Origin: a virus
Lineage: Duplodnaviria; Heunggongvirae; Uroviricota; Caudoviricetes
Virus record (IMG/VR): IMGVR_UViG_2864804954_000001
Coordinates: 46,193-110,192 of that record
DNA: 64,000 nt
Reading direction: 5' to 3' (one strand)
Part shown: piece after piece, positions 19-46,220 of the stretch
How the letters are laid out: each line of letters starts with the position of its first letter
How positions within the stretch are numbered: the first letter of the stretch is position 1
Notes under the pieces: generated by a model
Told to the model about the DNA's origin: nothing
What the model saw: only the letters and a program-made list of their open reading frames with translations
Databases searched by the model: none
Program-made: the position numbers and the translations under genes

Positions 19-64
19 CTTGGGCGACTTGGGTATCCAAACCGCTATCGTATATATTAATAAG
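19..64 (+). repeat. 45-bp promoter-like repeat R1 (plus orientation)
   Basis: CTTGGGCGACTTGGGTATCCAAACCGCTATCGTATATATTAATAAG. TTGGGT-16-TATATA resembles a sigma70 promoter. Confidence 0.45.
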
Positions 65-246
65 ATCATTTAAGTTTTTATTAAATAAATACGACGCGGT
101 TTGGATGTTTCGCTTCCCAAGTTCCAAGTCTGAAGGCATGGGTTGCACACCTACCTTACGGCTTACGAAGAATGCTCCATTGATGGCCATAACGAAGTTT
201 TGCGCGACTTCGTGTGCGCGTAATCCTGCGATGTCGAAATTTTCCA

Positions 247-1062
247 TTACCCTGCTCGTCCAATTTTTTTGTTAAGTGAGATGTACTGCCCCAAGTAGCG
301 GAGTGCGGTCTTTGACAGGCGCATATCCAGCGGTGCGGTCGTGCGGTAGGTCTCTTGGGTTTCGCCAATGGTTTGTGAGGTCAGTCCATTACGTCGGTAA
401 AGTGTTGACTGATCACCACCGCCGAGGATTTCTTCTGCTTCCGCGAGCTGTGCCAATTTCAACGCCTTGACGAATCGTGGCGTGAGTCTTTTGAACTCTC
501 TTGGCGGTAGCAAGCTGAGATTGCCGACAAGGTGACTTTCACCCAAGTAAGCTTGGCCGACAGTGACGTCCTCGAATCGGAAGGTGCAGATTCGCAATCG
601 CGCTTCAATCATGGCTGCGACACGTTCATCTTCGTTAGCGGCTGTCCATGCAGCTGTGCCAGGAATGGACATCGAGGTCAGGTAGGCTTCGCGCAACGTC
701 TGGAAGCTATTCAATCCCGTGATCAATCGTTCGCGTGGGACGATGATGTAAGGGAGGTCGAATGCCTGAATGTTGCCGTCTTCGAGTGTCACCTCAAATT
801 CGACGATTCTCGCTTCGTTTAAGCGCGCCAATTCCATTGTCTCGTAAGTGAGCGCGTCAAGGTCAATGGCTGCGATCTGATTCAATTCAGACGCAATGGT
901 GAGGGTTGTTTGGGTAGTGTCGAACGACGTACTCGCTTGAATCTCGGTCGAGTTATCATCCACGATGCGATATGTGGCCGAGGTGACTGACAGCGGGTTT
1001 CCATCGCTGTCAGTAAAGCTCACAGCCAGTTGAACTGGGGTTCCTGCGAGGTAAGTGTTCAT
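247..1062 (-). CDS. hypothetical virion structural protein (271 aa), last gene of head block
   Basis: Long minus-strand ORF immediately downstream of the capsid genes. Its start overlaps the stop of the upstream gene (ATGA-type). No recognisable catalytic motif. Confidence 0.45.
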   Translation of the reverse strand: MNTYLAGTPVQLAVSFTDSDGNPLSVTSATYRIVDDNSTEIQASTSFDTTQTTLTIASELNQIAAIDLDALTYETMELARLNEARIVEFEVTLEDGNIQAFDLPYIIVPRERLITGLNSFQTLREAYLTSMSIPGTAAWTAANEDERVAAMIEARLRICTFRFEDVTVGQAYLGESHLVGNLSLLPPREFKRLTPRFVKALKLAQLAEAEEILGGGDQSTLYRRNGLTSQTIGETQETYRTTAPLDMRLSKTALRYLGQYISLNKKIGRAG

Positions 1063-1610
1063 TATTCGGCTTCACCCGCAACTTCTAGGATGCGATCAAT
1101 TAAGTCGTTAATTGAGCCAGCTTTTACACCGACCTGAGTGCCAATTTCGCGTAGACCTGTTAGGCCACTTTCGTCCACAACCGCTTCCAGTTGAGCGCGT
1201 GTGTATTTCACATCCACATTAGTAGCAGAATTATCAACCACGCGATCGCCAACAGCGGCAGTAGGTTGAGCATTTGCCACAACATTTACCCCCTCCGCTT
1301 TGAATTGAGCGTGGGCGACCACCGTAGTCACATCAATTGCCTGCGCTGCGTTTTGGACGCCCACGACTGCCGCTAAGTGATCAAGGCGAGCTTCTTGCAG
1401 GCCAGTTGGTGCAGGCGTTTGTAAGTTGGCTGCGTACACATCGCCGATGTTGGCATGTGAACCATCTTCCCAAATGGCGCCAATTGTTCCCGCGATTCGC
1501 ATCCCATCTACAGGCAGTACATCGTTAATCGATAGACCATCTTGGAAGTAGATCACTCCCATTTGACCCGTGTAGTTCTCAAAGCCTGAGCCTGTTAATC
1601 GTAATTTCAT
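1062..1610 (-). CDS. hypothetical structural protein (182 aa), Ala/Val/Gly-rich
   Basis: ORF directly after the MCP terminator. RBS AAGGA 8 nt upstream of the ATG. Composition typical of a decoration/fibre-like protein. Confidence 0.5.
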   Translation of the reverse strand: MKLRLTGSGFENYTGQMGVIYFQDGLSINDVLPVDGMRIAGTIGAIWEDGSHANIGDVYAANLQTPAPTGLQEARLDHLAAVVGVQNAAQAIDVTTVVAHAQFKAEGVNVVANAQPTAAVGDRVVDNSATNVDVKYTRAQLEAVVDESGLTGLREIGTQVGVKAGSINDLIDRILEVAGEAE

Positions 1611-1650
1611 GTTTTACATCCTTGTTTCAGCCGTTCTTTGGCTGTGAAGT

Positions 1651-1675
1651 ATGATAAGTCAGCGGTGACTTTATT
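1651..1675. promoter_or_regulatory. palindromic element PAL (inverted-flank variant)
   Basis: GATAAGTCAGCGGTGACTTTAT, 40 nt upstream of gene 1062-1610. Confidence 0.45.
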
Positions 1676-1831
1676 ACAACGCAAAACATTGAAAGCCATC
1701 GCCATATTCCCTGTGTAAATCTTGGTTCTTCCGACCAGTCTGGGACTGAGCAGATTGTGAAGAACAAACTTGCCTTCGTTTAAGCGTTCGCCTTTGTATC
1801 GTTTGGTTTTCATCACTTTCCTTGAGACGTA

Positions 1832-1864
1832 AAAAAAGAGGAAGCATTGCGCTTCCCCTTTCTA
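1832..1864 (-). terminator. intrinsic terminator after major capsid gene
   Basis: Hairpin GGAAGC-attgc-GCTTCC flanked by an A-run and T-run (bidirectional), 25 nt downstream of the MCP stop. Confidence 0.5.
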
Positions 1865-1889
1865 AATCTGACCAACTAAAGGCAGTTTA

Positions 1890-2792
1890 TTAGATGTTTA
1901 CCACACCTTTTAAACGCGCCAAAGAGCGGGTTGATTTCAATGCTAAACCGCAGTACCACTTCAAGCGGATACGGGTCGCATCTTTGTTCTGAACCGTACC
2001 GATGTTTTCAACAACGATACCCGCAGAACTGCCGCCGTAGATACCATGCAAGCCATCAGCTTCGTTCAAGCGTACTGCGTACACTGAACAAGTTTTGGTT
2101 GCAGTGCCTTGCACTTCATTCGCTGCCAAAAACTCGTTCATGATGATAGGGATACCATTATGAGTAAGCATCGGACGACCGAAGTTTTCAAGCTGTTGCA
2201 TTACCGCATCAGTGCCGTAAGTTGCGCGAAGCAATGAACGGAATGCGCGGATTGTGCCGCGACGCATTACTAATACGTCTGCACCCAATGGAATCAAGTC
2301 AACCAACTCGTCGAGCTTGGCAAGTGTCAATGCACCACCATTTTCGCCCATGTCAATTGTCTGTTCGGCAGTAACCAACTTCGCAATACCATCGAACGAT
2401 TTAGGAGTCGTTGCGGTATCACCAGTGGCTAAAGTTTGATGGAATTGACGCGCTACACCTTTCGCTTTTTTGGCAATCTGAATCGCCATTTGGTCGTTAG
2501 TGTCGCCCATCGTTGAATCGAGGAACTTATCGATGTCCACATCGCCAGCTAAGATGCGAAGTTTCGCAACTTGTTCTGTGAACGTAGACGCACTTTCTTG
2601 GATTTGTTCGTTCGGATCAATCCAGTCTGCTGCGGCTAACGTATCTTCGCGGTTATACAAGTAAGCCTTCGAGTTCACTTGCATGAACGGTAAGATGGCA
2701 AACAAGTCATCACGGTCGATGATTTCGTCGATCACGCCTGCTTCAAGCGTGTTATTACTGAGTTTCTCGGCTTCTTCGCGTAAAAGTGGCAT
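1890..2792 (-). CDS. major capsid protein (300 aa)
   Basis: Position after portal and scaffold. Strong SD AAGGAGAGG. Followed by a terminator. Size and composition of an HK97/T7-fold MCP. Confidence 0.6.
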   Translation of the reverse strand: MPLLREEAEKLSNNTLEAGVIDEIIDRDDLFAILPFMQVNSKAYLYNREDTLAAADWIDPNEQIQESASTFTEQVAKLRILAGDVDIDKFLDSTMGDTNDQMAIQIAKKAKGVARQFHQTLATGDTATTPKSFDGIAKLVTAEQTIDMGENGGALTLAKLDELVDLIPLGADVLVMRRGTIRAFRSLLRATYGTDAVMQQLENFGRPMLTHNGIPIIMNEFLAANEVQGTATKTCSVYAVRLNEADGLHGIYGGSSAGIVVENIGTVQNKDATRIRLKWYCGLALKSTRSLARLKGVVNI

Positions 2793-2890
2793 CCTTGCCT
2801 CTCCTTGTGCTTTATTTGATTGAGTTAATTCGGGTCTAACTCGCTCTAGTCACCGACAGAACAAATCCTACCATCCTTGGTAGGACTTGT

Positions 2891-2914
2891 AAAGTCACCG
2901 CTGACTTACTTTTA
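2891..2914. promoter_or_regulatory. palindromic element PAL
   Basis: AAAGTCACCGCTGACTTACTTTTA, about 100 nt upstream of MCP. Confidence 0.5.
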
Positions 2915-2922
2915 TAAGGAAG

Positions 2923-3801
2923 TTAGGCTTTTTGTTTCAATAGAGCGTTTAAGCCCGCTTGAATCTTTTCCTGACCTGTAAGGGCTTTCGGTGGGGTGTT
3001 GAGGTTTTGACCTTTAGGTGTCGAGATAGAACCTGCACCTTGTTTAACTTTGGATTTGATCAAGTGATCTTTTTCAGGGTCGGCTTCGATGATCTTGCGC
3101 ATTGCTTCATCAAAACTTACCGTTTGACCGTAGGCGTCTACGATCGCTGTGCGGTTTGCTTCGCCACGCGGCTTGTCATAGCCAACTACTTTTCCATCTT
3201 CAATTTCGAAGTGTTCGCCGTACAATGCGCGGGCTTTGGCAGGTGGCAACACCAACTCACCAGTAACAAACTCAGATTGGCTAAATTGAGTGCCAACCGT
3301 TAAGTCGCTGATGCGTTGTTCAGACGCGCCTTTTGCACCTTTAAGGTCTGCAATTTCCTGCTGCAGCTTGGCAACTTCCGCTTTGTGTTGATCTGCCATG
3401 CTTTGCTTCACGCGTTCGTATTCGCCACGATCTTCAAGAGCTTTAACTTCGGCAGCTTTTTTGTCAGCCAACACTTGACGGACTTCAGCTAAGTCCAAGT
3501 CACCGATGCTTTCACGTAATGCTGCTTCTGCTTCTTTTGCTTTTTTCGCAGCTTCCTTGTGCTTCATTACGTCTTTAAGCAATGCCGCTTCTTTGTCGGT
3601 CAACGAACCTTCTGCTTTTGGTGGAGCTGTCGCAGGGTTTGCTTCGCCACCTTCTGCACCTGAGCCAGTGCCAGCGTTTTCTTCAGCGCCCTCTGCAGGA
3701 GTTGGAGCTTGACCACCAGCGCCACCTAAATCACCACCCTCACCATCGGCAGGGTTAGATAGGTGTCCACCATTCGTTAAAAGTTGCATCCATAAAGGCA
3801 T
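2923..3801 (-). CDS. scaffolding protein (292 aa)
   Basis: Gly/Ala-rich N-terminus then a long charged coiled-coil (KEAAKKAKEAEAALRE...). Located between portal and MCP. Confidence 0.55.
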   Translation of the reverse strand: MPLWMQLLTNGGHLSNPADGEGGDLGGAGGQAPTPAEGAEENAGTGSGAEGGEANPATAPPKAEGSLTDKEAALLKDVMKHKEAAKKAKEAEAALRESIGDLDLAEVRQVLADKKAAEVKALEDRGEYERVKQSMADQHKAEVAKLQQEIADLKGAKGASEQRISDLTVGTQFSQSEFVTGELVLPPAKARALYGEHFEIEDGKVVGYDKPRGEANRTAIVDAYGQTVSFDEAMRKIIEADPEKDHLIKSKVKQGAGSISTPKGQNLNTPPKALTGQEKIQAGLNALLKQKA

Positions 3802-3841
3802 ATTCAGTTCCTTGCTATTCTCTTAGCTGTTGAGCCGACGA

Positions 3842-5539
3842 TCACTTGTCGGCTGTATTTTTGGTTACTTGACCTTGGCGTTTGTTTTTGACTGCCTTGG
3901 CTTCAGTGTTTCCTTGTGGGTCTTTCGCTTTCGCGTCAGTTTGGGCGGCGCCTGGATTGGTTGACGTTGTGTTCGTCAGCTTCCCTGCGTTGTTGTTGTC
4001 AGTTAGACGGTTGGCAAGCTCAATCGGATCTACAGGCCATTCTTTTAACTCACTGACCATCTTCGCTTTCAGGTCTTTGGCGAGTTGTGGGAACAACTTG
4101 TCGATGATTGATTCCATTTGATGACGACGAATCGTTTCAGGCGCATCAATCAGCATCAGACGTGCCGCGATGTCGAACTCGTCATATAAGCCGCGTGTGT
4201 CGAAGTTGTCAGGGTAAGAAATGAACTCATTTGCCCCTTCTTCTTTTTCGCCATGCCACTTGAGGACAAGTCGAGAAATCTGTTCTTCAACCCACTCTAG
4301 GGAATCCGACTTCGCACAGAGCAATGCGTTTACTCGCTCGAAATCGTATGCCTTCGCAACACCGCTTGAGTTATCAATACCCACCGCGTTGTCTTGCTTG
4401 GTGCGCTCCCCTGCTAAACCTACCGTGTGATAAATTTCACCCACGATCTTGTTTACAGCGGTAATGATGAGATCAGCCTGCTTCACGTCTGGAGAGAGGA
4501 AGAATGGCGTTCCACCTTCTCCGTCATACAAGAAGATACGGCTAGTACCCATCTCGATGAGCTTGGCGTGCGTGTCGTCGCCTGGCAGTACATTCTGCGC
4601 AGGCATCGCCAACTGACTGAATGTTTGATCTTGAATGATGGCATCCAAGTTTGAGAGGTAGTTAGCTACCGCTCGGTCGAGGTACGCAATGTCGTCGATC
4701 ATCGCGGGCGCCTCATATTCTTCATCGCCAATCATGTGATCGGCCAGAATTACAGGCACTTCACCTAAGCCGTGATTGTCACTGCCGATTTTGACGATCT
4801 GTGTCTTCTTGGTTGTGCCAATACGCTTTTCTTCGTACAGCGTCCAATCTAACTTCGTCCAAAGGCGATAACGATGGATGGGTTCACCTGTCGAACCAAA
4901 CGGATCTGAATCGTCTCGTCCAATTTCGTGAATCAACACCCACTGAAGGCGTCCTTCGTCGTCAAATGAGTAATCAAGCAACTGTTGTGGCCCAACAATG
5001 TAGGCATAGGCTTTCATGCCTGCCTTCTTCTCATCAGCCCGAGTTTTCACCTCCAACCCATCTTTAGGCTGGCTCATGTCCACCACAATGCCTACGCGTC
5101 CGTACTGTGAGGTTCGCTTGCTCACTTGACGCATAAAGTCATCAATGGTTAGACCGTTGCGTGTTGCTCGTTTCCAAAATCCTTGCAATGCTTCAGGCGA
5201 ATCTTTGACGTTGCGCGTGATGGACTGCTTGAATAGGTACTTGTTGATGAGGTCTACAACTTCGCGGGTATGGTTGAAGCGGTAGGCGCGTTTTAAACGA
5301 TCGCCATACTCTTTGTCGCCTTCCTTGATGTAGCGGAAGACATTTGTTTCAAACCACTCGCGACCGCCCTCATAGGTTGCTTGCATGAAGTTCCAGTGAG
5401 GGAGTTGTTGCTTGTACTTCGGGTGACGTCGCTCAACGAATTTGCGTAAACGCTTCTGCTCATCCCCACCGACTGTACTGCCACTTCCTGTCGCAGTTAC
5501 GGGGTTGATGACTTGCGTTTCTCCTTGCTTTAATGGCAT
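3842..5539 (-). CDS. portal protein (565 aa)
   Basis: Size and position directly downstream of TerL. Basic, unstructured C-terminus. Confidence 0.65.
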   Translation of the reverse strand: MPLKQGETQVINPVTATGSGSTVGGDEQKRLRKFVERRHPKYKQQLPHWNFMQATYEGGREWFETNVFRYIKEGDKEYGDRLKRAYRFNHTREVVDLINKYLFKQSITRNVKDSPEALQGFWKRATRNGLTIDDFMRQVSKRTSQYGRVGIVVDMSQPKDGLEVKTRADEKKAGMKAYAYIVGPQQLLDYSFDDEGRLQWVLIHEIGRDDSDPFGSTGEPIHRYRLWTKLDWTLYEEKRIGTTKKTQIVKIGSDNHGLGEVPVILADHMIGDEEYEAPAMIDDIAYLDRAVANYLSNLDAIIQDQTFSQLAMPAQNVLPGDDTHAKLIEMGTSRIFLYDGEGGTPFFLSPDVKQADLIITAVNKIVGEIYHTVGLAGERTKQDNAVGIDNSSGVAKAYDFERVNALLCAKSDSLEWVEEQISRLVLKWHGEKEEGANEFISYPDNFDTRGLYDEFDIAARLMLIDAPETIRRHQMESIIDKLFPQLAKDLKAKMVSELKEWPVDPIELANRLTDNNNAGKLTNTTSTNPGAAQTDAKAKDPQGNTEAKAVKNKRQGQVTKNTADK

Positions 5540-5555
5540 GGTCGTCCTTGATTTA

Positions 5556-5580
5556 GTAAGTCACGGGTGACTTACTTTTT
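5556..5580. promoter_or_regulatory. palindromic element PAL (perfect 9-bp arms)
   Basis: GTAAGTCAC-GG-GTGACTTAC-TTTTT between terL stop and portal start, 18 nt from the portal ATG. Confidence 0.5.
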
Positions 5581-5585
5581 CTAGT

Positions 5586-6830
5586 CTAAATGGAAATACC
5601 ACCAATTTCAAGTTTGCGAACAGGAAATTCCAACTCGATGCAATATCCCGCTGCATCGGCTGAGTGTTCTACGCCTGCGTCTTTATCGACGTCGCGACTT
5701 CCTGGCTTGTAGATGGTCTGCTCGAATGAGTTAATGAGGTGCTTGCAGGATTCGTCGATGCGCAAACGGATTTTGCCGTCCGCTGATCTAAGCATCCTGT
5801 TCACCGCATTGACGCGGTCGGCAATTGGTGGGTGCTTTTTGCGGTTCTTGATTCGGACAAAGCCCTTCTCCCGCATGATGTCCAAGTCGGTCTCACCCCT
5901 TGCGTGTTGACGCTGACCACTCGCAGGGTCAGGATAGATCACGACTTGTCGTTGGTATTTCCACAGCTTCTCGTCCAACGCATCGCAGATTTCCTGCGTG
6001 TTTGAACCGTACTGCACGATCTCATCAACCGCCCAAACTTCACCATTCGGCTGAGGTTGGAAAATGACGGTACTCATTGGGTCAATGTTGAAGTCCATCC
6101 CCACCCAAATTGGCAGAGCTGGATTGAACTTGTATTTCCCGACGTGTTCGTCACGGTCAAAGGCGTAGTACACACGTCCACTCATTGTCTCGAACGAAGC
6201 AAGGAACTCCTGCTTGAACGATTTGTCGTCCATATCGGCTTTCGCTGCTGCGATCTCCGACAATGGAATGAACGGTGAGGTGATGGTTGGAAACTGCCAT
6301 GACTCCCATTGGCCTGTCCGCAGCTTGTGTGGGTCTTTGCCTTGTTTGTAAACAGAGTAAAGACAGTTGTAAGCCTTCGGTGTCCCAATGAAGATGGCGT
6401 GACCACCAGTGTCGGCAAGCGTCGGTCGCAATACTTTGGTCCAAGTGTCTTCGTCCATGTCTTGATATTCATCAAGTACAAGGAAGTTGATACCTACACC
6501 ACGTAAGGAATCGGCTTTATCCGCACCTTTGAGTTCGATGCGCGAACCATTAACCAAACGAACGGTTAAGTTCGATTCATTGATCTTGGCAATCCAGGCA
6601 CGGGGAATTGCGTCGAGTAACGCAAGCCACATGATCTGCTTTGCCATTTTGTAGGTTGGCGCAACGTACCAAATCAACTGCTTTGGCTTTTGCGCTTTAG
6701 AGATCATCAGCACTTTGGAGAGCTGCGTCTTGCCCCAACGACGACCCGCTACGACACAGCGAAAACGAGCCTTCGATTGGTACACTTCCATTTGCTTAGG
6801 GTGTAATGCGAGCTTTTCCTTTAGTCCCAT
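5586..6830 (-). CDS. terL: terminase large subunit (414 aa)
   Basis: Walker A VVAGRRWGKT near the N-terminus and a Walker B-like LVLDE. C-terminal nuclease-like acidic residues. Confidence 0.8.
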   Translation of the reverse strand: MGLKEKLALHPKQMEVYQSKARFRCVVAGRRWGKTQLSKVLMISKAQKPKQLIWYVAPTYKMAKQIMWLALLDAIPRAWIAKINESNLTVRLVNGSRIELKGADKADSLRGVGINFLVLDEYQDMDEDTWTKVLRPTLADTGGHAIFIGTPKAYNCLYSVYKQGKDPHKLRTGQWESWQFPTITSPFIPLSEIAAAKADMDDKSFKQEFLASFETMSGRVYYAFDRDEHVGKYKFNPALPIWVGMDFNIDPMSTVIFQPQPNGEVWAVDEIVQYGSNTQEICDALDEKLWKYQRQVVIYPDPASGQRQHARGETDLDIMREKGFVRIKNRKKHPPIADRVNAVNRMLRSADGKIRLRIDESCKHLINSFEQTIYKPGSRDVDKDAGVEHSADAAGYCIELEFPVRKLEIGGISI

Positions 6831-6840
6831 TAATTACACT

Positions 6841-7443
6841 TTATGCAGTTGGTTGAGGGTCTTGGACTGCTTCGCCTTCTGGCATTTCAACCAACTCCTC
6901 TTGGAAGTCGTTGAAATCTCGGTTGCGTAAGTCCTCGATTTGATCTGCGGTCAATTCTTCGATCACCAGTGCTGGCAATTCGTTGGTATCGACTGCATCA
7001 GGTCGGTCAAGACCTAAGATCGCCCACCGCTCTTGACGAGCTTTTGAGATAACATTGACGGCAGCTTCAATTGCCTTAAGGTTGGATTGAGCAACGGACA
7101 GTGGCGAACCATCCTTCTTGCATTTCGAGAGTTCTTCCCACGCTAGGCGCGCAAGATGAGCGGACATCTTGTAATGCTCATCTTTCGTTTCCTTAATGCG
7201 CTGCGCGTAAATGGCTGCGTCTGCTGATGCTGCGTCCGTAACTTGTTCGGCAATCCGTTTCCGATGTTCTTCTGCTCTTGACCCGCGAACCACGCCACGT
7301 TTTTTCATGTGGAGTGATACTGCGGTGGGTGACACATCAAGCTTTTTGGCGATCTCGTCCCGTGTAGCTTCGCCTAATTCCCATAGGGCTTCCGCTTCAG
7401 CCCACTGTTTAGGCTTCGGCAGGGTTTTCTTTTCGGTAGTCAT
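6841..7443 (-). CDS. terS: terminase small subunit (200 aa)
   Basis: HTH (DEIAKKLDVSPTAVSLHMKKRG) at the N-terminus. Immediately upstream of terL. Acidic C-terminus. Confidence 0.55.
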   Translation of the reverse strand: MTTEKKTLPKPKQWAEAEALWELGEATRDEIAKKLDVSPTAVSLHMKKRGVVRGSRAEEHRKRIAEQVTDAASADAAIYAQRIKETKDEHYKMSAHLARLAWEELSKCKKDGSPLSVAQSNLKAIEAAVNVISKARQERWAILGLDRPDAVDTNELPALVIEELTADQIEDLRNRDFNDFQEELVEMPEGEAVQDPQPTA

Positions 7444-7543
7444 TCGCGTTCCATGCTTGAATGAAAAGGGGCGTGTGAGGTACTTCCATGTACTACACCG
7501 CCCCGTTGTTCAAGCGAGGATACTTTGAGCATCCTTTAAAGTC

Positions 7544-7568
7544 AAGTCACCGCTGACTTACTTTTATG
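7544..7568. promoter_or_regulatory. palindromic element PAL
   Basis: CAAGTCACCGCTGACTTACTTTTAT upstream of terS. Overlaps TTGACT -35-like hexamer. Confidence 0.5.
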
Positions 7569-7956
7569 TGTGGTATGCCAAGACGTACCATAGCGCACAA
7601 GACAGAGCCAGTGCTTCGGTATCGAATGGGATTGTCAGATGATGCTCATCGTTGAATACAAACGAAGCGATGAACATTGGTGAGTATTCTTCCCCACGTT
7701 TACGCTTCACAAAATCAATCGACGGGAAAATAAGAGGGTCTAGCCCGATGCGTTGCAGTTCAGGCATTGTGGCGTCAATATCACCACAGTAATCAGGAGC
7801 AATTGAGCAGCCGAACTGTTCGCTTCGTACCGCCTGATCGTCGAGCATGTGAGTGTTAAAACCGAGGAGGTAATCAATTTCTGAATTGGCTTGTGCGCCT
7901 GGGGAGAAGTCGTCCCCGATGATTAGAACTTCGTGTTCCGTAGTTGACTTGGGCAT
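7564..7956 (-). CDS. hypothetical protein (130 aa)
   Basis: ORF with RBS GCAAGG. Preceded by the 45-bp promoter-like repeat R2 and palindromic element. Confidence 0.45.
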   Translation of the reverse strand: MPKSTTEHEVLIIGDDFSPGAQANSEIDYLLGFNTHMLDDQAVRSEQFGCSIAPDYCGDIDATMPELQRIGLDPLIFPSIDFVKRKRGEEYSPMFIASFVFNDEHHLTIPFDTEALALSCALWYVLAYHT

Positions 7957-7983
7957 CCTTGCCGCTCCCGTGTATTAGTAATT

Positions 7984-8008
7984 AAGTAAGTCACGGATGA
8001 CTATATTA
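7984..8008. promoter_or_regulatory. palindromic element PAL
   Basis: TAAGTAAGTCACGGATGACTATATT, between repeat R2 and the gene 7956 start. Confidence 0.45.
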
Positions 8009-8050
8009 ATATATACGATAGCGGTAGGGATACCCAAGTTCACCCAAGTT
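8001..8050 (-). repeat. 45-bp promoter-like repeat R2 (minus orientation) upstream of gene 7564-7956
   Basis: Minus: CTTGGGTGAACTTGGGTATCCCTACCGCTATCGTATATATTAATATAG. Confidence 0.45.
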
Positions 8051-8061
8051 GCGGAGGATGG

Positions 8062-8337
8062 TTATTCGGCAACCGTTTTCGGTGTGTGCCACTCAACGTA
8101 TTTCTTACCAAGTTCGGTGGTGTCGAATAACACCTTACGGCGCTGTTCGCGTACGTCCGTTCCAACTTTGGCAATCAGTTTTTTACCGACCATACTGCGG
8201 ACAACAAATTGCATCGAAGGTTTGTTGGTTGGGTAAGACTGAGCCGCGATGATCTGATCGAGATCCACCAGTGTTCCATCTGCGTTTTTACCGTCGATGG
8301 TTTTGAGCAGTTCCATTTGTTTAGAAGTTAAGAGCAT
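8062..8337 (-). CDS. hypothetical protein (91 aa), possibly winged-helix
   Basis: Small basic ORF overlapping the upstream gene by 17 nt. Confidence 0.4.
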   Translation of the reverse strand: MLLTSKQMELLKTIDGKNADGTLVDLDQIIAAQSYPTNKPSMQFVVRSMVGKKLIAKVGTDVREQRRKVLFDTTELGKKYVEWHTPKTVAE

Positions 8338-9259
8338 TCAGCTTCTCCATGTTCAGCGGTTCGTCGGTGCGTTGATTGTCGAATGCCAACAACGGTAATC
8401 GCTCAGGCATGATCAACTCACGTCCTTCGAGCATTGCAGCCTTGACATCAGGGTTTTCATACATGCCGTACATTGGGCTTGCGAACACCAGTTGTTGTGT
8501 GGATTTGATCAGCATTTCCACCGAGAGTCCTTCCACGCGACTTGTGCCATTCATGCGGTTGTTCCCGGACTTCTCCATTGAGCTGTACTGGTAATAAAAC
8601 TTGCGCATTTCCGCGATGCACTTTTCACGCACCGCTTTGGGCATACCTTCCAGTTCACGCTTCACTCCGACGAAGTCACTTGGATGCGCTTCAAACCAAC
8701 TGCGGAAGAATTTCAATCCGCGCTCATAGTTGGTTGCACGTTTTGGCTGAGAGAATTGAATCCCTGCTTTTTGTGCGAATGGATTGAATTTGCTCATAGA
8801 GCTTTGGAACTCAATCAAACGGCAGCCAGTCATGCGCATCATGAGATTCTGTGCGCGGTAGGCAATCCCTGCCCCTCGGTACATGGTATCGACGACAAGA
8901 CGGCTGTTGGTGCACACATTGTCATTAATCCAGTTGGCGCGGTATTGATTCATCAGACGAGAGTCTTTGCCGCCGCTTGAGTTGGGACGTAGATGCTTGA
9001 ACAGGTCATTTCGTCCACCAAGCAGCATTTTGGGTACCGTCATCACTCCGACACCGATGGTCTTGCCGTGCAGCACCACTCGCCAACGTCGAGGGCCAAT
9101 CCCTTCACTTTTGCCTTTGTAGTGGAGTTCGTTGAGTAGTAACCAGTCCTCTTTTGTTCCTGGCTCGATGTAAATATCATCCAGTAGCGATAGGCGGTGG
9201 TTTTTAGGGACGTCGTGACGCTGAATTAAAACTTGCGGGGTGTCTTTGATTACTTTCAT
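8321..9259 (-). CDS. hypothetical protein with GNAT-like motif (312 aa)
   Basis: Motif TMYRGAGIAYRA resembles GNAT motif A (R/QxxGxG/A) after a beta-strand-like VVLHGKTIGVGVM. Confidence 0.4.
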   Translation of the reverse strand: MKVIKDTPQVLIQRHDVPKNHRLSLLDDIYIEPGTKEDWLLLNELHYKGKSEGIGPRRWRVVLHGKTIGVGVMTVPKMLLGGRNDLFKHLRPNSSGGKDSRLMNQYRANWINDNVCTNSRLVVDTMYRGAGIAYRAQNLMMRMTGCRLIEFQSSMSKFNPFAQKAGIQFSQPKRATNYERGLKFFRSWFEAHPSDFVGVKRELEGMPKAVREKCIAEMRKFYYQYSSMEKSGNNRMNGTSRVEGLSVEMLIKSTQQLVFASPMYGMYENPDVKAAMLEGRELIMPERLPLLAFDNQRTDEPLNMEKLNALNF

Positions 9260-9272
9260 GTTTCCTTCTCCT

Positions 9273-9297
9273 AAAAAAAGGGCTTTCGCCCTTTCTT
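9273..9297 (-). terminator. intrinsic terminator
   Basis: AAAAAAA-GGGC-tttc-GCCC-TTTCTT hairpin, bidirectional, downstream of thioredoxin gene. Confidence 0.5.
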
Positions 9298-9595
9298 ATA
9301 GTCCCCACTCAATCAGCTTGGCTTCTACTGAGGCGGTAGAGAGCTGCCCTGCAAAGCGGGAAAGTTCTTCTCCACCTTCGTCAACCAACATTGTGACAGG
9401 CACAGCACGAATTCCATGCCGTTCAAAGCGAGGGCGATTATCATCAGCCAGCTCCACGATTTCTAATTCAAAGCCGCGTAATTCTGCTTGAGCGGCCAGT
9501 TCAGGTTTAAGGCGTTTACATGGTCCACAAGTGGGAGAGGTAAACACCACGACTTTATTCGGCATTTTTGTATCCTTCAGGAGCTTTAATATCAA
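9296..9595 (-). CDS. thioredoxin-like protein (99 aa)
   Basis: CxxC active site in FTSPTCGPCKRLKPEL. Thioredoxin-fold length. Confidence 0.65.
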   Translation of the reverse strand: MILKLLKDTKMPNKVVVFTSPTCGPCKRLKPELAAQAELRGFELEIVELADDNRPRFERHGIRAVPVTMLVDEGGEELSRFAGQLSTASVEAKLIEWGL

Positions 9596-10211
9596 TCTTC
9601 TCGCGGAAGCGTTTGTCGATAGTCACGGTAGGCGCAAGGTCTTTCACCATGTCGCTATGTGTAGTGGCAACCAGTACAGTCGCACCCACGCTACGTGCCA
9701 CCTTCTGAAGATTGAAGGCAATTACTTTGGCGGTGGTTCGGTCGAGTACCGCTAAGAACTCGTCGGCAATCCAGACTTGCGCACCTGATTCAATTAACTT
9801 GGCAAGACGGAAACGGTAACGCTGACCATCCGACAATTCACTTGGCTTGCGAATGAACAGGTATGCGTCGTTTAAGCCTGCAACTGAAAGCAGTGTGAGC
9901 GCTTCCTTCGTGCTTGTTCCAATTTGGTCGATTAGAGGCGCATCGAGCAGTTCAACCTTGTCGATGTCGGCAACGGTTTTCCCTTCTGCCGTCATTAAGG
10001 TTGATAACTCACGCAGAACAGTGGACTTACCCGAGCCTGATTGACCCGTGATATACACCACATCACCTTCGCGAATCTCGATGCCTAGGTTATCGAACAC
10101 CACGAACTCTTTATCGTCCAACCCAAGTCCGAAGGCTTCCGCAATCTCCAAGACGCGCTTTGAGCGTTCAACTTCCGTGTTGTAACGCTTGTCAACTGTG
10201 TAGATCGGCAT
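9555..10211 (-). CDS. stand-alone ABC-type ATPase (218 aa)
   Basis: Walker A GQSGSGKST; ABC signature-like LSDGQRYRFRLA; Walker B WIADEFLAVLD; H-loop TTHSD. No transmembrane partner. Confidence 0.6.
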   Translation of the reverse strand: MPIYTVDKRYNTEVERSKRVLEIAEAFGLGLDDKEFVVFDNLGIEIREGDVVYITGQSGSGKSTVLRELSTLMTAEGKTVADIDKVELLDAPLIDQIGTSTKEALTLLSVAGLNDAYLFIRKPSELSDGQRYRFRLAKLIESGAQVWIADEFLAVLDRTTAKVIAFNLQKVARSVGATVLVATTHSDMVKDLAPTVTIDKRFREKIDIKAPEGYKNAE

Positions 10212-10861
10212 TATGCGGCTTCCATAATCTGTTTGATGTAACCCACAAAGGCTTGCGCGCCTTCTGCACCTGTCTCCGCTTCTGCTACTGCCAAAAAGCG
10301 TCGAATGGTACGTTCATCTTTGATGGCGATCTCTTTGAAGCCGAGCACCTTGTCGATACGCACGACGGCATTGTCGGTTTCTTCGATCATTTCACTGGTT
10401 TCTTCGGAGTGCTTTTCAGCTTCCGCGCTAATGTCCATCACAATCGCGTCAAGGTCGAACGTACCCAAGTCGGCAAACATGAAGTCAATTTCTTTCTTGT
10501 CGAAAATGCCGTCCATGTCAAAGTCAAGGGTTGATAACTCTTGTTGAAGAATGTCGGCATCAATGTCACCTACGGCAACGCGGTTGTCGGCAAGGCGCGA
10601 AGCTCGCGCTTGTTCTTCCGTAAGGTCATCACGCACCCATACTGGAACACTGGTAATACCTAAGTGAATCGCTGCAAGGCGACGACCATGCCCTTTGATG
10701 ACAACATGGTCTTTGTCTACGACAATTGGTTGGTCCCAACCAAACTCCGAGATTGACTTAGCAATCTTTTCGATTTGTTTTTTGTCGTGAACTTTGGCAT
10801 TCAGCTCGTATGGCTTGATGTCGTCAATGTCGAGGTAGACCACAGGAACTTTGATTGTCAT
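10211..10861 (-). CDS. ParB-like nuclease domain protein (216 aa)
   Basis: ParB N-terminal domain motif KGHGRRLAA and upstream DIDDIKPYELNAKVH. Acidic C-terminal half. Confidence 0.6.
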   Translation of the reverse strand: MTIKVPVVYLDIDDIKPYELNAKVHDKKQIEKIAKSISEFGWDQPIVVDKDHVVIKGHGRRLAAIHLGITSVPVWVRDDLTEEQARASRLADNRVAVGDIDADILQQELSTLDFDMDGIFDKKEIDFMFADLGTFDLDAIVMDISAEAEKHSEETSEMIEETDNAVVRIDKVLGFKEIAIKDERTIRRFLAVAEAETGAEGAQAFVGYIKQIMEAA

Positions 10862-11175
10862 TAGTCGATCTCCAACTCACCCATAGAACCTAAACCTACA
10901 GGTTGATAGTCAGGGTGATCAGGAGAGAGTGGCTTTTGTGATTGATCGCCTAATGTCAGTACCGCAACACGTTCCAGTGTCACCTCGCGATAATCGCGCA
11001 CCACGTCAAGTTCGTCATGAAGTAACTGTTCTTCGCGCTCGCTGATGCCGCCTGCTTTGATGATAGATTGAAGTAAGGCAACTTCGTCGGCCAGTTTGTT
11101 TGCTCGGTCGATGAGCTTTAGAACCAAAGCTGCTTTTTCTTTTGGAATTTCAACTTCCGCTGTTTGTTGTGTCAT
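10861..11175 (-). CDS. hypothetical protein (104 aa)
   Basis: ORF in ATGA overlap with both neighbours. Confidence 0.45.
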   Translation of the reverse strand: MTQQTAEVEIPKEKAALVLKLIDRANKLADEVALLQSIIKAGGISEREEQLLHDELDVVRDYREVTLERVAVLTLGDQSQKPLSPDHPDYQPVGLGSMGELEID

Positions 11176-11178
11176 TGC

Positions 11179-11820: not shown

Positions 11821-11833
11821 TCCTTATATCTAG

Positions 11834-11858
11834 TAAAGTAAGTCACGGGTGACTATAC
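11834..11858. promoter_or_regulatory. palindromic element PAL in divergent intergenic region
   Basis: TAAAGTAAGTCACGGGTGACTATAC. 14 nt from the minus-strand ATG, 42 nt from the plus-strand helicase ATG. Confidence 0.5.
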
Positions 11859-11899
11859 TTTGCCACAATCAAACATAATTTGCAAAGGACAAACACACA

Positions 11900-13621: not shown

Positions 13622-13697
13622 TTATTTGAGGCGATGTAGTCAATACTGCATCGCCTGCTATATAATGATTGCATCAATATATTATTAGAGATTTACA

Positions 13698-14003: not shown

Positions 14004-14019
14004 CCCTCTCAGATCACAC

Positions 14020-14047
14020 AGAACGCTCCATGTGAGCGTTTTTTTAC
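14020..14047 (+). terminator. intrinsic terminator of plus-strand island
   Basis: AACGCTC-catgt-GAGCGTT followed by TTTTTTT. Confidence 0.6.
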
Positions 14048-34419: not shown

Positions 34420-34616
34420 GCCTTTAGTCTCTTATATACCGTGATTGAATTGTGACGCATGATGCTTGGAAAACATGACGTCAAAAGATTTAGCCAAAAG
34501 AAATCCCAAGTACCGCGAAGTGACTTGGGAAGACTTGGGGTCCGCGAGTGCTATCGTATATTTATATAAACCGCTATTAACTAATTTATATTTAATACGA
34601 TCGCGGGTTGGGAAAA

Positions 34617-39508: not shown

Positions 39509-40014
39509 GCTGCGTTCCGTAATGTGTATGTGCGATCGGTTAAATGTTTAGGCTTCTTGTAGCGCTCGTTGTAGCAAGGCTTGCATAGTGACTCCAATCG
39601 AGTCTCGCTCTTTCGACTACGGCCATAAAAGAACTCTTTGGTTGCCGGGTGATAGTCGTCGCACCCTTTGCAATACTTGTGGCGCTCACCGTCAATAAAT
39701 TCATACAGCGGCTTTTTGCGCGTTCTGTCCTGTCTTGCTGAGAAGCGGTAAAAGTGATGAATCGCAGAGTGATGGACGCAAATTACCTCCTCACCTTTGA
39801 AAATGCCGAAGCCGTATGAGACATGCCAATCCTGATGCAGCATGAGTCCACCTTTCTTCTGCAAGGCGTAACCAAGTGATTTAGCAAGTGTGTAGTAATC
39901 TTCAAGATCAATTACATCCTTTACGCGCTGAAGTTCTACAAGTCGCTCTGTGGTGTCATAGGCTTCTACTTCTTCTGCGGTCGCCTGTACGCATGTTGTA
40001 ATAAGTTCGATCAC
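39505..40014 (-). CDS. Cys/His-rich protein, possible HNH-type nuclease (169 aa)
   Basis: HHSAIHHF and CKGCDDYHP ... CKPCYNERY zinc-ribbon-like pairs. Confidence 0.4.
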   Translation of the reverse strand: MIELITTCVQATAEEVEAYDTTERLVELQRVKDVIDLEDYYTLAKSLGYALQKKGGLMLHQDWHVSYGFGIFKGEEVICVHHSAIHHFYRFSARQDRTRKKPLYEFIDGERHKYCKGCDDYHPATKEFFYGRSRKSETRLESLCKPCYNERYKKPKHLTDRTYTLRNAA

Positions 40015-40901
40015 GCTAAACGCCCCAATTCTTTTAATTTTCTATTCTTGGCTTTCTCCCGATCACTTTCCGCTTGCGACCGACATGGCTTGCACTTTGA
40101 AACAGGCTTACCATTGCGCATAGTCCAGTATTGTGCAGTCATAGGAAAATACTTTTTACATTCAAAACAACATTGACTTTGTGAGCCATCTTCGTTGGTG
40201 ACAATCTTCTCAAGACCTAACTTTTTCTCGAATCTCCTTATGACCACATTTGCTCTGCTCTCTAGCTTTGACACTACTTTCAGGTTGGAAATATCAACGT
40301 TCCCACTGTCGCCATCAATAAAGCAAACCTCACTATTGTCATCTACAGGGGAAATGAACGCATTTGCAACAATGCGAGACAAAGTCCTATTTTCTTGATT
40401 GGAATCTCTACGAAGATTAATCATGAAGTTGATGGATTTGTTAAACTTCCTGTTTGTTTCACTCAGATGAGGAGGTACAAGATACTCTTGCCTGATGTAC
40501 TCAATGCCTCCAGCGTTTCTTCTAGCTTTAAGTCGCTTTACCCTGCTGAAGTTTGAAACCATGTACTCGTCGAAGCCCTCAATTTTTCTCCAAACTTCAC
40601 CTTCAATGTTTTCAATTGGCGGGAACTTGTCTGGATAGACAGCTTGCATCAAGGCGTTTATGGCGACAATTGCAGGCTTCTCACGACCGCGACAAAGTGA
40701 CACTTTGTTCAGGGAGTCAATTTTGTTTCCATGTCTGTTCTTGCCGCCAACAGCTTTCAACTGTTTCCCTCTCACGTATCTACGAACGGCATTTGACATA
40801 ACGATCTCTCGCGGCAGTGAGAATACAGCGCCATCTTCACGCAATTCGTAAAGCCCCTCAAAACCAGGAACTTTGCGACGTTCCAATTTAATTTCGCTCA
40901 T
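40011..40901 (-). CDS. NUMOD4/HNH_3-type homing endonuclease (296 aa)
   Basis: N-terminal PGFEGLYELREDGAVFS (NUMOD4 signature). C-terminal CCFECKKYF...CKPCR zinc finger. Located between nrdB and nrdA. Confidence 0.6.
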   Translation of the reverse strand: MSEIKLERRKVPGFEGLYELREDGAVFSLPREIVMSNAVRRYVRGKQLKAVGGKNRHGNKIDSLNKVSLCRGREKPAIVAINALMQAVYPDKFPPIENIEGEVWRKIEGFDEYMVSNFSRVKRLKARRNAGGIEYIRQEYLVPPHLSETNRKFNKSINFMINLRRDSNQENRTLSRIVANAFISPVDDNSEVCFIDGDSGNVDISNLKVVSKLESRANVVIRRFEKKLGLEKIVTNEDGSQSQCCFECKKYFPMTAQYWTMRNGKPVSKCKPCRSQAESDREKAKNRKLKELGRLA

Positions 40902-44562: not shown

Positions 44563-45380
44563 GCCACCTGTCCGTATCGTTCCGAGATCATTTCTGGCGA
44601 CTGCTGATTTAAGAGAATTTCGAGTGAATCTTCAATGTCGGCTTTTTCTTTGGCTGCTGCCAGTGCAAGCTCTACCTCGCGCTTCTGTTTGGCAATGAGT
44701 TCGCGCTCTCTTTGTAGTTCCATTTCTTTTTGTGCGTCTTTGGCTTTCTTGCGCATACGTTCCTCTCTTTCTTCGCTTTCCTTTCTCATTCGTTCTGCTT
44801 CGGACAATCCATTCACACGGATAGTGCCCCTCTGTTCACGCTTAGGGGTTGATGATGCAATTGAGATTCGCTTTTCGGAGATGCATGACTCCGCTGTGAT
44901 CATTCCAAAATGATCTACTGCACTTGAAACGTAACCCCTGTTGACTGATTCCACTTCAACATCAAGGTTGATGTAGAGTTCATTTTGGCGTTCTAGCTTT
45001 TCTGCATTTTCTACGAACTCCTCACGCGCTTGATCGCAACCGCCACGATTACAGCGGAGCGAAATGCCGAATTTATGCTTACGGTTAAGGTTGTCTTGAT
45101 AGCTGCTTGATTCACACATGCGGTTGGAACAGCCAATGCACGTCGTAGGAAAGCCGCCGCTCATGTGCAACTGCTTTCCAATTTCGTGCTTGAAGACATC
45201 TCCAATGGTCTGCATGGTTTGGTCATACATACGAGAAACGCTGATGTTACGCGAATCAAGGTAATGTTTTGCATCCATTGGGTCGATGAGCATCACCGCC
45301 TGGATCAAATCGCCATTCAAAAATCTGACAGTGTTAAGTTGGGATTCTGCGGGTGAAAAACCAGTCACTTTATTGTCCAT
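44556..45380 (-). CDS. hypothetical protein (274 aa) with C-terminal ...ERYGQVAW
   Basis: Cys cluster CIGCSNRMCESS...CNRGGCDQ, charged coiled-coil, then the shared C-terminal tail. Confidence 0.45.
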   Translation of the reverse strand: MDNKVTGFSPAESQLNTVRFLNGDLIQAVMLIDPMDAKHYLDSRNISVSRMYDQTMQTIGDVFKHEIGKQLHMSGGFPTTCIGCSNRMCESSSYQDNLNRKHKFGISLRCNRGGCDQAREEFVENAEKLERQNELYINLDVEVESVNRGYVSSAVDHFGMITAESCISEKRISIASSTPKREQRGTIRVNGLSEAERMRKESEEREERMRKKAKDAQKEMELQRERELIAKQKREVELALAAAKEKADIEDSLEILLNQQSPEMISERYGQVAW

Positions 45381-45408
45381 AAAAAAAGGCTAGAAAATAT
45401 CTAGCCTA
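45381..45408 (-). terminator. intrinsic terminator
   Basis: Minus: AGGCTAG-atattt-TCTAGCC then TTTTTTT. Confidence 0.5.
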
Positions 45409-45410
45409 AT

Positions 45411-45433
45411 TATAGTCACCGCTGACTTACTTT
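45411..45433. promoter_or_regulatory. palindromic element PAL
   Basis: TATAGTCACCGCTGACTTACTTT upstream of gene 44556-45380. Confidence 0.5.
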
Positions 45434-45441
45434 CTACCTAA

Positions 45442-46080
45442 TCAATGGAGCAACTGTCCATTTTTTAGCTGCTCAGCATATTCAGCAAAGGCCTCTGTGC
45501 GAATCCCTGCGCGAATAATAAAGCAAGCATCGGCTAAGTGTTCGTTGTCGTTGATGATCGGATATTCCTTCTGATCTTTACGCTTGGTCTTTGCGCGTAA
45601 CCAAGGTGCGTCAGGGAATAGTTTTGTCGCTGCCTCAATCATTTCATGCTTGGTTGCTGTAATGTCGCTACAGCCCGCCAGTTTCGCTGCTGAGGGCGAG
45701 ACTTCAATCAAGGGCTTGGGACACGTCCCAAGCAGCCCCAAGCTCACACCGTATGACGTCATAGCGCGACTTGATTGTGAACCGATGGGAATCTCTGCAA
45801 TGACGATGTCTGCATCTTTTACCGCCTCATGAAAGGCTGCGCTGAGAATTTTGGCACGACGTAGATCGTCAGAGCCAACCGAGACACCTTTCGGCAGCTC
45901 CCGCACCTTCGTCACTTTGCCTTCACGCGACTTCTTCAGGCGTTCGACTTTGCCGTCTTCTGTCTGTGCCAATTTAAGATCGTAGACTTCGTAATTTTCG
46001 GGGTTGTCCAAATCTACCATTGCTATCGCAAGTCCCATATTTGAAAGCGCAGGGTCGCAACCGACCACTTTGATTTTCAT
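45442..46080 (-). CDS. RuvC-like Holliday junction resolvase (212 aa)
   Basis: N-terminal KIKVVGCDPALSNMGLAI (RuvC D7 region) and C-terminal NEHLADACFI (catalytic D/H region). Confidence 0.5.
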   Translation of the reverse strand: MKIKVVGCDPALSNMGLAIAMVDLDNPENYEVYDLKLAQTEDGKVERLKKSREGKVTKVRELPKGVSVGSDDLRRAKILSAAFHEAVKDADIVIAEIPIGSQSSRAMTSYGVSLGLLGTCPKPLIEVSPSAAKLAGCSDITATKHEMIEAATKLFPDAPWLRAKTKRKDQKEYPIINDNEHLADACFIIRAGIRTEAFAEYAEQLKNGQLLH

Positions 46081-46182
46081 GTGTTGTTTCCTTTTTGGTT
46101 GGACGGTCGTTTCGAGTGACCGTGTTGGGAGTTGGGAGTGCCGTTCGCTACCGTAATATTTATAAGTAATTCTAGTAAGAAT

Positions 46183-46220
46183 CTATATTAAATATACGAT
46201 AGCTATGGCGGTTCCCAAGT
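46183..46220 (-). repeat. promoter-like repeat R3 (minus orientation) upstream of ruvC-like operon
   Basis: Minus: CTTGGGAACCGCCATAGCTATCGTATATTTAATATAG. Confidence 0.4.

Follow-up and report, generated by a model that had tools for sequence, protein, structure and literature searches.

In P2-like phages, convergent promoters 40–60 bp apart (pR and pL with the regulator Apl in 186, Pe and Pc with Cox in P2) serve the repressor gene on one side and the early lytic operon on the other, and regulators of the Apl/Cox type bind direct repeats 10–11 bp apart, about one helical turn (PMC7498355). In the phage-plasmid P1 the operators of the C1 repressor are scattered genome-wide, beside a separate class of Lpa-dependent late promoters (PMC8198154), and in staphylococcal phages RinA is described as an activator of the late-operon promoter upstream of terS (PMC3152322). 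Here we describe a dispersed family of repeats in a 64,000-nucleotide stretch of viral DNA (IMG/VR record IMGVR_UViG_2864804954_000001, positions 46,193 to 110,192; hereafter the window), which by sequence comparison is 64 kb of a ~111-kb SSU5-like Acinetobacter phage-plasmid. Each repeat, which we call an arm, combines ACTTGGG heptads with an AT-rich block, and we propose that the arms belong to a regulator-dependent promoter/operator family, partly arranged as convergent promoter pairs like the P2/186 switch, a reading to which we give an even chance of being right.

The likeness to P2 and 186 is one of layout: a pair of arms in the switch region, designated P0, has the same face-to-face arrangement, with heptads 9–12 bp apart. 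The heptads differ in lying over and upstream of each putative –35 rather than between the start sites, the putative starts are closer together (~20 bp), the unit recurs at no fewer than six loci including a structural gene, and no Apl/Cox or 186-CI homologue has been identified here. As in P1, a phage-plasmid carries many dispersed operator/promoter-like sites beside another promoter-like class, although the units are larger, consist of heptad direct repeats and are often paired face-to-face; we know of no sequence similarity between the heptad units and the 17-bp P1 C1 operator. One arm, c2, lies directly upstream of a terS-led morphogenesis operon, as RinA-dependent promoters do, whereas the hosts and sequences are different and c2 belongs to a multi-copy family that serves non-late loci too. 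In class II promoters of the PhoB/OmpR type, tandem 7-bp repeats in direct orientation, spaced by roughly one helical turn, replace a poor –35 next to a good –10. Two 7-bp heptads one turn apart likewise abut a –10-like block with a poor –35 here; unlike at pho boxes, no response-regulator-type protein has been identified, and there are inverted sets of heptads and an isolated array of boxes at 14258–14342.

Detection and anatomy of the heptad arms

An nhmmer profile trained on 17 arms from relatives only, to avoid circularity, was searched against the 64-kb window and the 9 kb beyond its right edge. It reports five significant arms in the window (c1 to c5), three weaker inverted partner arms (c3', c2' and c1') and nothing else in the 64 kb, while just past the right edge it finds the strong pair P0, both of whose arms have E-values of ~1e-10 (Table 1). 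The preliminary description of the window had recognized three copies, corresponding to c1, c2 and c3, each with TTGGG(T/A), 16 nt and TATAT(A/T), and these are present at the places and on the strands that it gave. Its list was incomplete, lacking c4, c5 and the inverted partners, and the facing-pair arrangement is absent from it. The direct heptad sub-repeats that it attributed to every copy are found in the first two; the third has only one good heptad, the distal CTTGGT being degenerate. Related units of the kind it pointed to are there as well, CCCAAGT at 116–130 and the box-rich tract at 14258–14342.

These sequences are far in excess of chance. The 19-nt core GCTATCGTATATWTWAATA has four matches at three or fewer mismatches (0.00 expected), the geometry CTTGG[GA]-N16-18-TATAT-like has seven (0.44 expected), and ACTTGGG occurs 29 times in the window (5.4 expected), 13 of them within modules or arrays. 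About 16 solitary copies of ACTTGGG lie outside the modules, mostly on the coding strand (for example, on the minus strand, at 290–296, 542–548, 10122–10128, 10464–10470, 47341–47347, 54657–54663 and 58739–58745), and these may reflect Leu-Gly/Thr-Trp codon bias and not binding sites.

An arm is about 50 bp long and consists of two ACTTGGG heptads 9–12 bp apart, a 16-bp gap and a CGTATAT-led AT-rich block; c3' departs from this in that its heptads are contiguous (7-bp spacing). TTGGGN followed by 16 nt and a TA-rich hexamer is found in every arm here, in at least eight diverged relatives, in an A. baumannii plasmid and in the IMG/VR contig L042 (L numbers designate related contigs and records). 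At c1, c2, c3 and P0 a second arm faces the first across an AT-rich centre of 40–55 bp, and the paired arms together form an imperfect palindrome of 85–115 bp. The distance from core to core within pairs is variable (39–55 bp) while the gap between box and core is fixed, indicating that the rigid unit is the arm and not the pair.

The 16-nt spacers lead in the same direction. They agree between loci at 14 of 16 positions for c2 and the minus arm of P0 (P0-), at 14 of 16 for c3 and the plus arm (P0+) and at 15 of 16 for the plus arm of c4 and the minus arm of c3 in L074, compared with 9–12 of 16 between the partners of one pair; spacer types are thus common to loci rather than to partners, which argues for sequence-specific recognition over mere hairpin complementarity. 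The modules nevertheless fold as single strands much better than shuffled sequences, with z-scores of –8.0 (c1), –5.3 (c2), –5.2 (c3) and –9.1 (P0), and of –7.7 to –8.3 in relatives; folding is weaker at c4 (–3.4) and c5 (–2.8). Among seven aligned c2 orthologues only 3 of 24 pairs show compensatory changes, and the covariation term is +0.77. The fixed gap, the cross-locus spacer types and the scarcity of compensatory change all favour the arm as the recognized unit.

Table 1. Heptad arms, modules and associated features (window coordinates, except for P0, which is numbered in contig L063).
Feature	Position	Strand	Description
Arm c1	18–67	+	Heptads 19–24 and 27–33; 16-bp gap; CGTATATATTAATA; E = 1.8e-12; antisense in 205-aa gene
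Partner arm c1'	78–130	-	Core ACCGCGTCGTATTTATTT (84–104) constrained; E = 0.04
Arm c2	8000–8051	-	Heptads 8043–8049 and 8033–8039; 16-bp gap; CGTATATATTAATATAG; E = 1.1e-12
Partner arm c2'	7943–7983	+	ACTTGGGC, 16 nt, TGTATT; family D12; E = 0.014
Arm c3	46181–46230	-	Heptad 46214–46220; degenerate CTTGGT 46225–46230; 16-bp gap; CGTATATTTAATATAG; E = 6.5e-7
Partner arm c3'	46124–46165	+	Contiguous heptads GTTGGGAGTTGGGA, 16 nt, TAATAT; E = 1e-3
Arm c4	34523–34571	+	Heptads 34523–34529 and 34533–34539; 16-bp gap; CGTATATTTATATAA; E = 1.8e-8
Arm c5 (degenerate)	19233–19283	+	Two heptads; iteron-like spacer TCTCTCTACCGTAATA (19257–19272); TAATATATAAATAT; E = 1.6e-6
Box array	14258–14342	-	5–7 direct TTGGG(A/G) boxes, 7–16 bp apart
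Heptad cluster	45715–45747		Palindromic, GCTTGGGGCTGCTTGGGACGTGTCCCAAGC; inside RuvC-like gene, ~450 bp downstream of c3
Pair P0	5916 / 6029 (L063)	+ / -	Outside window; cores ~55 bp apart
205-aa head-tail gene, 5' part	1–247	-	Start ATG 245–247; hosts c1 module; continues past window

Constraint on copy 1 and conservation in relatives

Constraint at the level of the DNA is seen at c1, which lies within a gene for a 205-residue head-tail protein; in the full contigs the start and stop codons of this gene overlap the neighbouring genes, the ATG overlapping the stop codon upstream. The c1 segment aligns without an insertion or deletion to 20 homologues, down to 36% identity, so that nothing has been inserted at this position, and the antisense arm is preserved nearly base-for-base in eight genomes whose proteins are 59–88% identical. 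Synonymous identity is 0.855 at codons 63–76, which hold the c1 heptads and core, and 0.763 at codons 50–62, which hold the AT-rich centre and the core partner, compared with 0.37–0.49 in the rest of the gene at a similar amino-acid identity. In a sliding window of 27 codons the peak falls on the c1 element (0.825, with a median of 0.443), a value reached by 0 of 5000 column permutations. These frozen synonymous sites indicate that the DNA, and not the protein alone, is under purifying selection.

The constraint follows the parts of the module unevenly. Nearly all synonymous sites of codons 50–55, which contain the c1' core, are invariant, and the sense-strand heptads of c1' (116–122 and 124–130, codons 37–49) are 7 bp too distant from that core and show no constraint (synonymous identity 0.51). 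A conserved antisense open reading frame (ORF) downstream of c1 is unsupported, its ATG being lost in L038. The preliminary description had taken the position of c1 at the very start of the window as a possible sign of a divergent control region or of a genome end, and both suggestions fall away, given that c1 is antisense within a gene and internal to a 110,906-bp contig.

In that contig (Logan SRR12415433_13) window position 1 is position 83,709. There are near-identical or related contigs of 97–111 kb, one of them within an Acinetobacter tibetensis assembly, and the terminase region matches 966 plasmid records at 60–80% identity, including A. baumannii plasmids of 107–114 kb; the window is placed in an SSU5-like Acinetobacter phage-plasmid accordingly. 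Megablast of 12 kb of the window against phage records gave no match, and neither did tblastn of the 130-aa and 205-aa proteins against them. Nearly all genes of the window are on the minus strand, with portal, large terminase and capsid genes at 1.9–7.4 kb, and it also encodes a ribonucleotide reductase (RNR) and an SbcC-like ATPase.

The positions and orientations of the arms are conserved down to ~60% protein identity, with a modified form in A. baumannii plasmids and in the Salmonella phage SSU5. The position of c2 is kept upstream of the terS operon from Acinetobacter to SSU5, with orthologues in seven related contigs (L031, L032, L037, L038, L039, L067 and L068), an A. baumannii plasmid, L042 and SSU5. 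Every close relative, and the A. baumannii plasmid too, shows two heptads at this locus, before the genes for a 130-aa protein and terS, followed by the 16-bp gap and T(A/T)TATATTAATATA. In L042 both sides of the pair are present in full. In SSU5, where CTGGGAG/TTGAGAG stands in place of the heptad, the locus is a near-perfect palindrome (CCTGCTTCCGTATATATAAATA...TATATACGGAAGCAGG) with CTGGGAG-type boxes on either side, a second copy of which is located at 78285. The weak partner c2' has two heptads in L037 and L038. The c3 pair has orthologues in L072, L074 and the rearranged L073 described below, and the arm with contiguous heptads, c3', is conserved in L072. An antisense c4 arm follows the same 218-aa gene in L072, L073 and L074, and is part of a full pair in L074; no c4 orthologue was found in the A. 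baumannii plasmid, and c4 is specific to the closer clade. That plasmid carries a near-perfect pair directly behind repB, and a single unpaired sense arm is located within its SbcC gene.

In a high-GC relative of ~111–113 kb, whose RNR is 57% identical, a non-orthologous locus shows three CTTGGGT boxes separated by a 16-bp gap from TATATAAAAC, and the boxes overlap the start of a divergent gene; blastn of this locus (L057) gave no match. A pattern combining heptad and core has four matches in IMG/VR, three belonging to the high-GC relative and one to chance, and 25 in metagenomes, where only L078, L080 and L090 are true relatives and the others are coding coincidences. A scan of IMG/VR with the exact core has 30 matches, all in an unrelated conserved coding stretch of other phages and lacking heptads. 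To judge from these exact-pattern scans, the ACTTGGG/TCGTATAT version does not otherwise occur outside this Acinetobacter lineage.

In L073 (7548–9063; Logan SRR31860680_2445, 82.8 kb) the repressor/recombinase/ParA block adjoins the RuvC-like/RNR operon, and just one heptad pair separates the two, which suggests either that the c3 pair and that of the switch region can stand in for each other or that a rearrangement has fused them.

Promoter, hairpin and palindrome readings of the modules

Several observations are consistent with a promoter/operator function. Every arm has a –10-like hexamer (TATATT, TATATA or TAATAT, 4–5 of 6 matches) 16–18 bp from TTGGGN. Four arms are co-oriented with, and upstream of, a gene: c2, which heads the operon for the 130-aa protein, terS, terL, portal and capsid and lies ~55 nt upstream of its first gene; c3, ~105 nt upstream of the RuvC-like gene (45442–46080); and P0+ and P0-. 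The P0 arms have the early operon on one side and, on the other, a divergently placed gene for a 135-aa HTH_3-like regulator, each aiming at the gene on its far side, and they show the direct heptads 9–12 bp apart in a convergent layout between a repressor-like gene and an early operon. Behind the regulator gene, which ends in a terminator of its own, come genes for a short tyrosine recombinase, ParA and a 142-aa partner; the early operon includes a 63-aa Cys-rich ORF, CobT/AAA_5, DnaE and more. Two further families of intergenic promoter-like motifs, described below, are what temporal promoter classes would lead one to expect.

Other observations weigh against this promoter/operator reading. 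TTGGGT matches TTGACA at only 3 of 6 positions (TTG), and a scan for the sigma70 consensus requiring at least 4 of 6 matches per hexamer calls none of the arms; the AT-rich block allows more than one –10 register, the T at –7 is missing from TATATA, and in c1 and c2 TATATT is at 18 bp. Three of the five significant arms of the window (c1, c4 and c5) are not upstream of a co-oriented gene and are directed against all neighbouring genes, the putative convergent starts would be only ~20 bp apart, an unusual arrangement, and as hairpins, too, the modules are highly stable (z of –5 to –9). At c1 and c4 the palindromic core persists without a second set of heptads, which a one-way promoter does not need. 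Neither a sigma factor nor an RNA polymerase of phage type was noticed, and no protein has been identified as the regulator; the first early ORF (63-aa, Cys-rich) has no Pfam, PHROG or NCBIfam match, and no homologue of a recombination directionality factor was found. The plain sigma70 promoter proposed earlier is therefore only partly borne out: its strict 16-bp geometry holds, and the weak –35 together with the silence of the consensus scan makes a heptad-binding auxiliary factor the likelier arrangement. Likewise, copies 2 and 3 do stand upstream of, and co-oriented with, the minus-strand operons they had been said to drive, in positions conserved in relatives, and their promoter role is putative. 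A reading as an extracytoplasmic-function sigma site (GAACTT ... TCGTA) was dropped, AAC being unconserved among arms and the spacing too long.

If the promoter/operator reading is correct, the host sigma70 RNA polymerase would initiate at an arm with the proximal heptad at –35, the two heptads lying about one helical turn apart over and upstream of it, and a heptad-binding protein encoded by the phage-plasmid would either replace the poor –35 (activation) or occlude it (repression). Candidates for the regulator are the 135-aa HTH_3-like protein, the 142-aa partner, the 63-aa Cys-rich protein of the early operon and the 130-aa protein encoded downstream of c2. Since the arms stand face-to-face across 40–55 bp, polymerase could not occupy both simultaneously. 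The sense arms would head operons for replication (P0+), recombination and nucleotide metabolism (c3) and packaging and morphogenesis (c2). The opposing arms P0- (towards the repressor gene), c2', c3', c4, c5 and c1 share the direction of the maintenance genes, and might oppose or gate transcription in the lytic direction through interference or antisense RNA, with one heptad-binding factor deciding which arm of each pair fires. At c2 only, where the c2' heptad overlaps the ribosome-binding site and ATG (7954–7956) of the 130-aa gene, pairing of heptads with this region could in addition block translation of read-through transcripts. An extension of this scheme, which we think improbable, would make the pairs genome-wide directional toggles governed by a single heptad-binding factor, with P0-, c4, c5 and c1 firing in the plasmid state to silence lytic operons through antisense transcription and interference, and P0+, c3 and c2 taking over on induction.

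The stability of the modules as hairpins raises the alternative that the whole 85–115-nt palindrome acts as RNA in read-through transcripts, as an RNase III-type site for processing or stability or, at c2, by hiding the ribosome-binding site and start codon. Parallels exist: RNase III sites in T7 are conserved long intergenic hairpins, and in T4 e, soc and I-TevI a promoter in the 5' arm of a hairpin frees the ribosome-binding site only on transcripts started there, a layout resembling that of c2. Folding far better than shuffles (z down to –9.1), an ability of palindromes to work in both orientations that would explain the mixed strands, the pairing of c2 heptads with the ribosome-binding site/ATG/CCCAAGT region in 7 of 7 aligned orthologues and the overlap of heptad complements with start codons in L042 and the high-GC L057 all fit such a role. 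Against it, compensatory change is nearly lacking, as noted above for c2; changes in the c1 core partner of L037 are uncompensated, and arms match across loci and genera better than partners match each other. The weak folds of c4 and c5, the lack of contact between the right arm and a ribosome-binding site at c3, c4 and P0, and the placing of a cleavage site or strong hairpin within an essential structural ORF at c1 are further difficulties. The modules differ from the T7 and T4 hairpins in this lack of covariation, in the conservation of arms across loci and in that most copies involve no ribosome-binding site, and we consider an RNA role improbable. An Rfam scan of the window had no matches at gathering score and a tRNA scan none; a terminator scan of 1–20000, which includes c1, c2 and c5, reported no arm or module, and the c3 and c4 sequences have no T-run after the stem.

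The symmetry might equally serve proteins that bind DNA palindromes for mainly non-promoter purposes, such as lytic origins or unwinding elements, insulators or roadblocks, or, at c2, a packaging site; an AT-rich centre flanked by inverted initiator boxes is the plan of oriS of herpes simplex virus. Conservation extends to the symmetric order of the elements (heptads, core, AT-rich centre, core, heptads), and the core persists where heptads are one-sided. An origin-like role would fit the near-perfect pair directly after repB in the A. baumannii plasmid and the position of c5 in an iteron-rich non-coding hub, its spacer being an iteron unit, although the origin of that plasmid is a separate, classical array of iterons and DnaA boxes upstream of repB, and the partition system has a different palindrome, upstream of parA and at 19331–19369. 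At least six copies per genome, one in a structural gene, would be odd for origins and are incompatible with a unique pac or cos site, and it is the intra-arm spacing that is fixed while the inter-core spacing varies. In favour of this account, the GenBank sequence of SSU5 is opened within the palindrome orthologous to c2; the start of the Cyrano record is copied from SSU5 and gives no independent support for a physical end. Taken together, this account is unlikely, though it fits the symmetry. Finally, a dispersed palindromic repeat of ~100 bp with one copy in frame inside a gene recalls small mobile palindromes such as miniature inverted-repeat transposable elements, Correia elements or Rickettsia palindromic elements, or duplicated insertion flanks, the last having been raised in the preliminary description. 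Orthologous loci keep their places in diverged genomes, target-site duplications are lacking, no indel is seen at c1 across its 20 homologues and synonymous sites there are constrained rather than decaying; the flank idea is excluded on these grounds, and a mobile origin of any kind is hardly credible.

Two specific identities were rejected. The modules are not a parS/parC centromere, as the region upstream of parA has a different palindrome (ATATGGCAATATGGGAATATTCC...) and no heptad arm; nor are they an iteron-type origin, with the heptad pair downstream of repB and the iteron array upstream in the A. baumannii relative, and an iteron-like unit in c5 alone. As to the SSU5 record itself (NC_018843.1; L069/L070), its ends, 103244–103299 and 1–40, fall within the palindrome, and the first base is shared by only one other record, that of Cyrano (OV696614), which is a plasmid re-annotated and aligned to SSU5. 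We treat the break as a coincidence and not as evidence for a physical end; it may reflect a physical terminus, an assembly break at a palindrome or the authors' choice.

Other repeats, a probable maintenance hub and significance

The remaining heptad modules have individual features. The c4 arm is intergenic and directed against the flanking genes, with a core partner at 34591–34606 and an inverted heptad at 34505–34511, and c5 has a core partner ATTTATTGCGGT at 19300–19311. The array at 14258–14342 is the densest CCCAA cluster of the window and lies between two convergent terminator-like hairpins (14208–14241, plus strand; 14594–14622, minus strand); it shows no conservation in the A. baumannii plasmid, and may be a further binding array, sink or landing pad for the putative heptad-binding factor.

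A second family, AAGTAAGTCA-N4-TGACT(A/T)TA(AT), joins a short palindrome to an adjacent TATAAT-like hexamer and has 18 matches (0.16 expected) at 15 loci; the 22-nt sites are at 1652, 2890, 5554, 7542, 7984, 11836, 33605, 37952, 38799, 41520, 44067, 45411, 50187, 50886 and 57070. They are mostly intergenic and gene-oriented, standing before capsid, portal, terS, helicase and RNR genes among others, and the c2 module contains one perfect copy, oppositely oriented. The family looks like another promoter/operator class. The late promoters of P1 also carry inverted repeats, immediately ahead of the –10. A third family, on the minus strand between 15342 and 21794, precedes many small minus-strand ORFs (for example at 15325–15400, 15847–15922 and 20702–20787) and consists of sigma70-like hexamers such as TTGCAT-N16-TATTAT followed by a leader TATCGAAAC(A/G)A(A/C)(C/G)AAC (9 matches, 0.34 expected), often with a CCGCTA...TAGCGG hairpin upstream; these are probably early promoters and their leaders.

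The region 18320–19815 comprises 1.5 kb that is rich in repeats and without ORFs of 80 or more aa. It contains six iteron-like units YCTCTCTACCGTA (18404–19272), GCCTG(C/A)G repeats (19371–19410) and a palindrome ATATGGGAATATGGGAATATTCCTTACCATATTTC (19331–19369) that recurs upstream of parA outside the window (L063 4265–4415), and is probably a cis-acting hub for plasmid maintenance, combining copy control and partition.

The replicative polymerase (58326–61772, minus strand) is a DnaE-type alpha subunit with PHP, pol3_alpha, finger and HhH domains, and its C-terminus has a domain of the uracil-DNA-glycosylase superfamily (residues 999–1126, E = 1.6e-9). Its identity to the counterparts in Rhizobium, Pseudomonas and Stenotrophomonas phages and in Salmonella phage SSU5 is only ~42%. 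An ORF at 40011–40901 (minus strand) encodes a 296-aa NUMOD4/HNH_3 homing-endonuclease-like protein with only two homologues among 5.8 billion proteins, one of them identical; situated close to the RNR genes, it is likely to be a mobile element that was inserted recently. The RNR and RecA of relatives carry inteins instead.

Families of phage promoter and operator repeats are already known, as are face-to-face switches; no promoters or operators of SSU5-like phage-plasmids appear to be described in the searchable literature, and it is the occurrence of arms at six or more loci, the conserved antisense arms and the overprinting of one copy on a structural gene that seem unusual here. SSU5-like phage-plasmids are common in Klebsiella, Escherichia, Salmonella, Yersinia and Acinetobacter, and some of them bear resistance genes, the A. 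baumannii relative carrying msr(E), mph(E) and aph(3')-Ia. If the promoter/operator reading is correct, a conserved family of cis-elements would mark not only the switch region but also the heads of the main operons and certain conserved antisense points, and c1 with its frozen synonymous sites would show cleanly how a regulatory element can be overprinted on a coding sequence. Were the distributed toggles also real, the single face-to-face switch of P2 and 186 would be extended to a multi-site switch. The arms would also offer a handle for finding the regulator that decides between plasmid maintenance and lysis.

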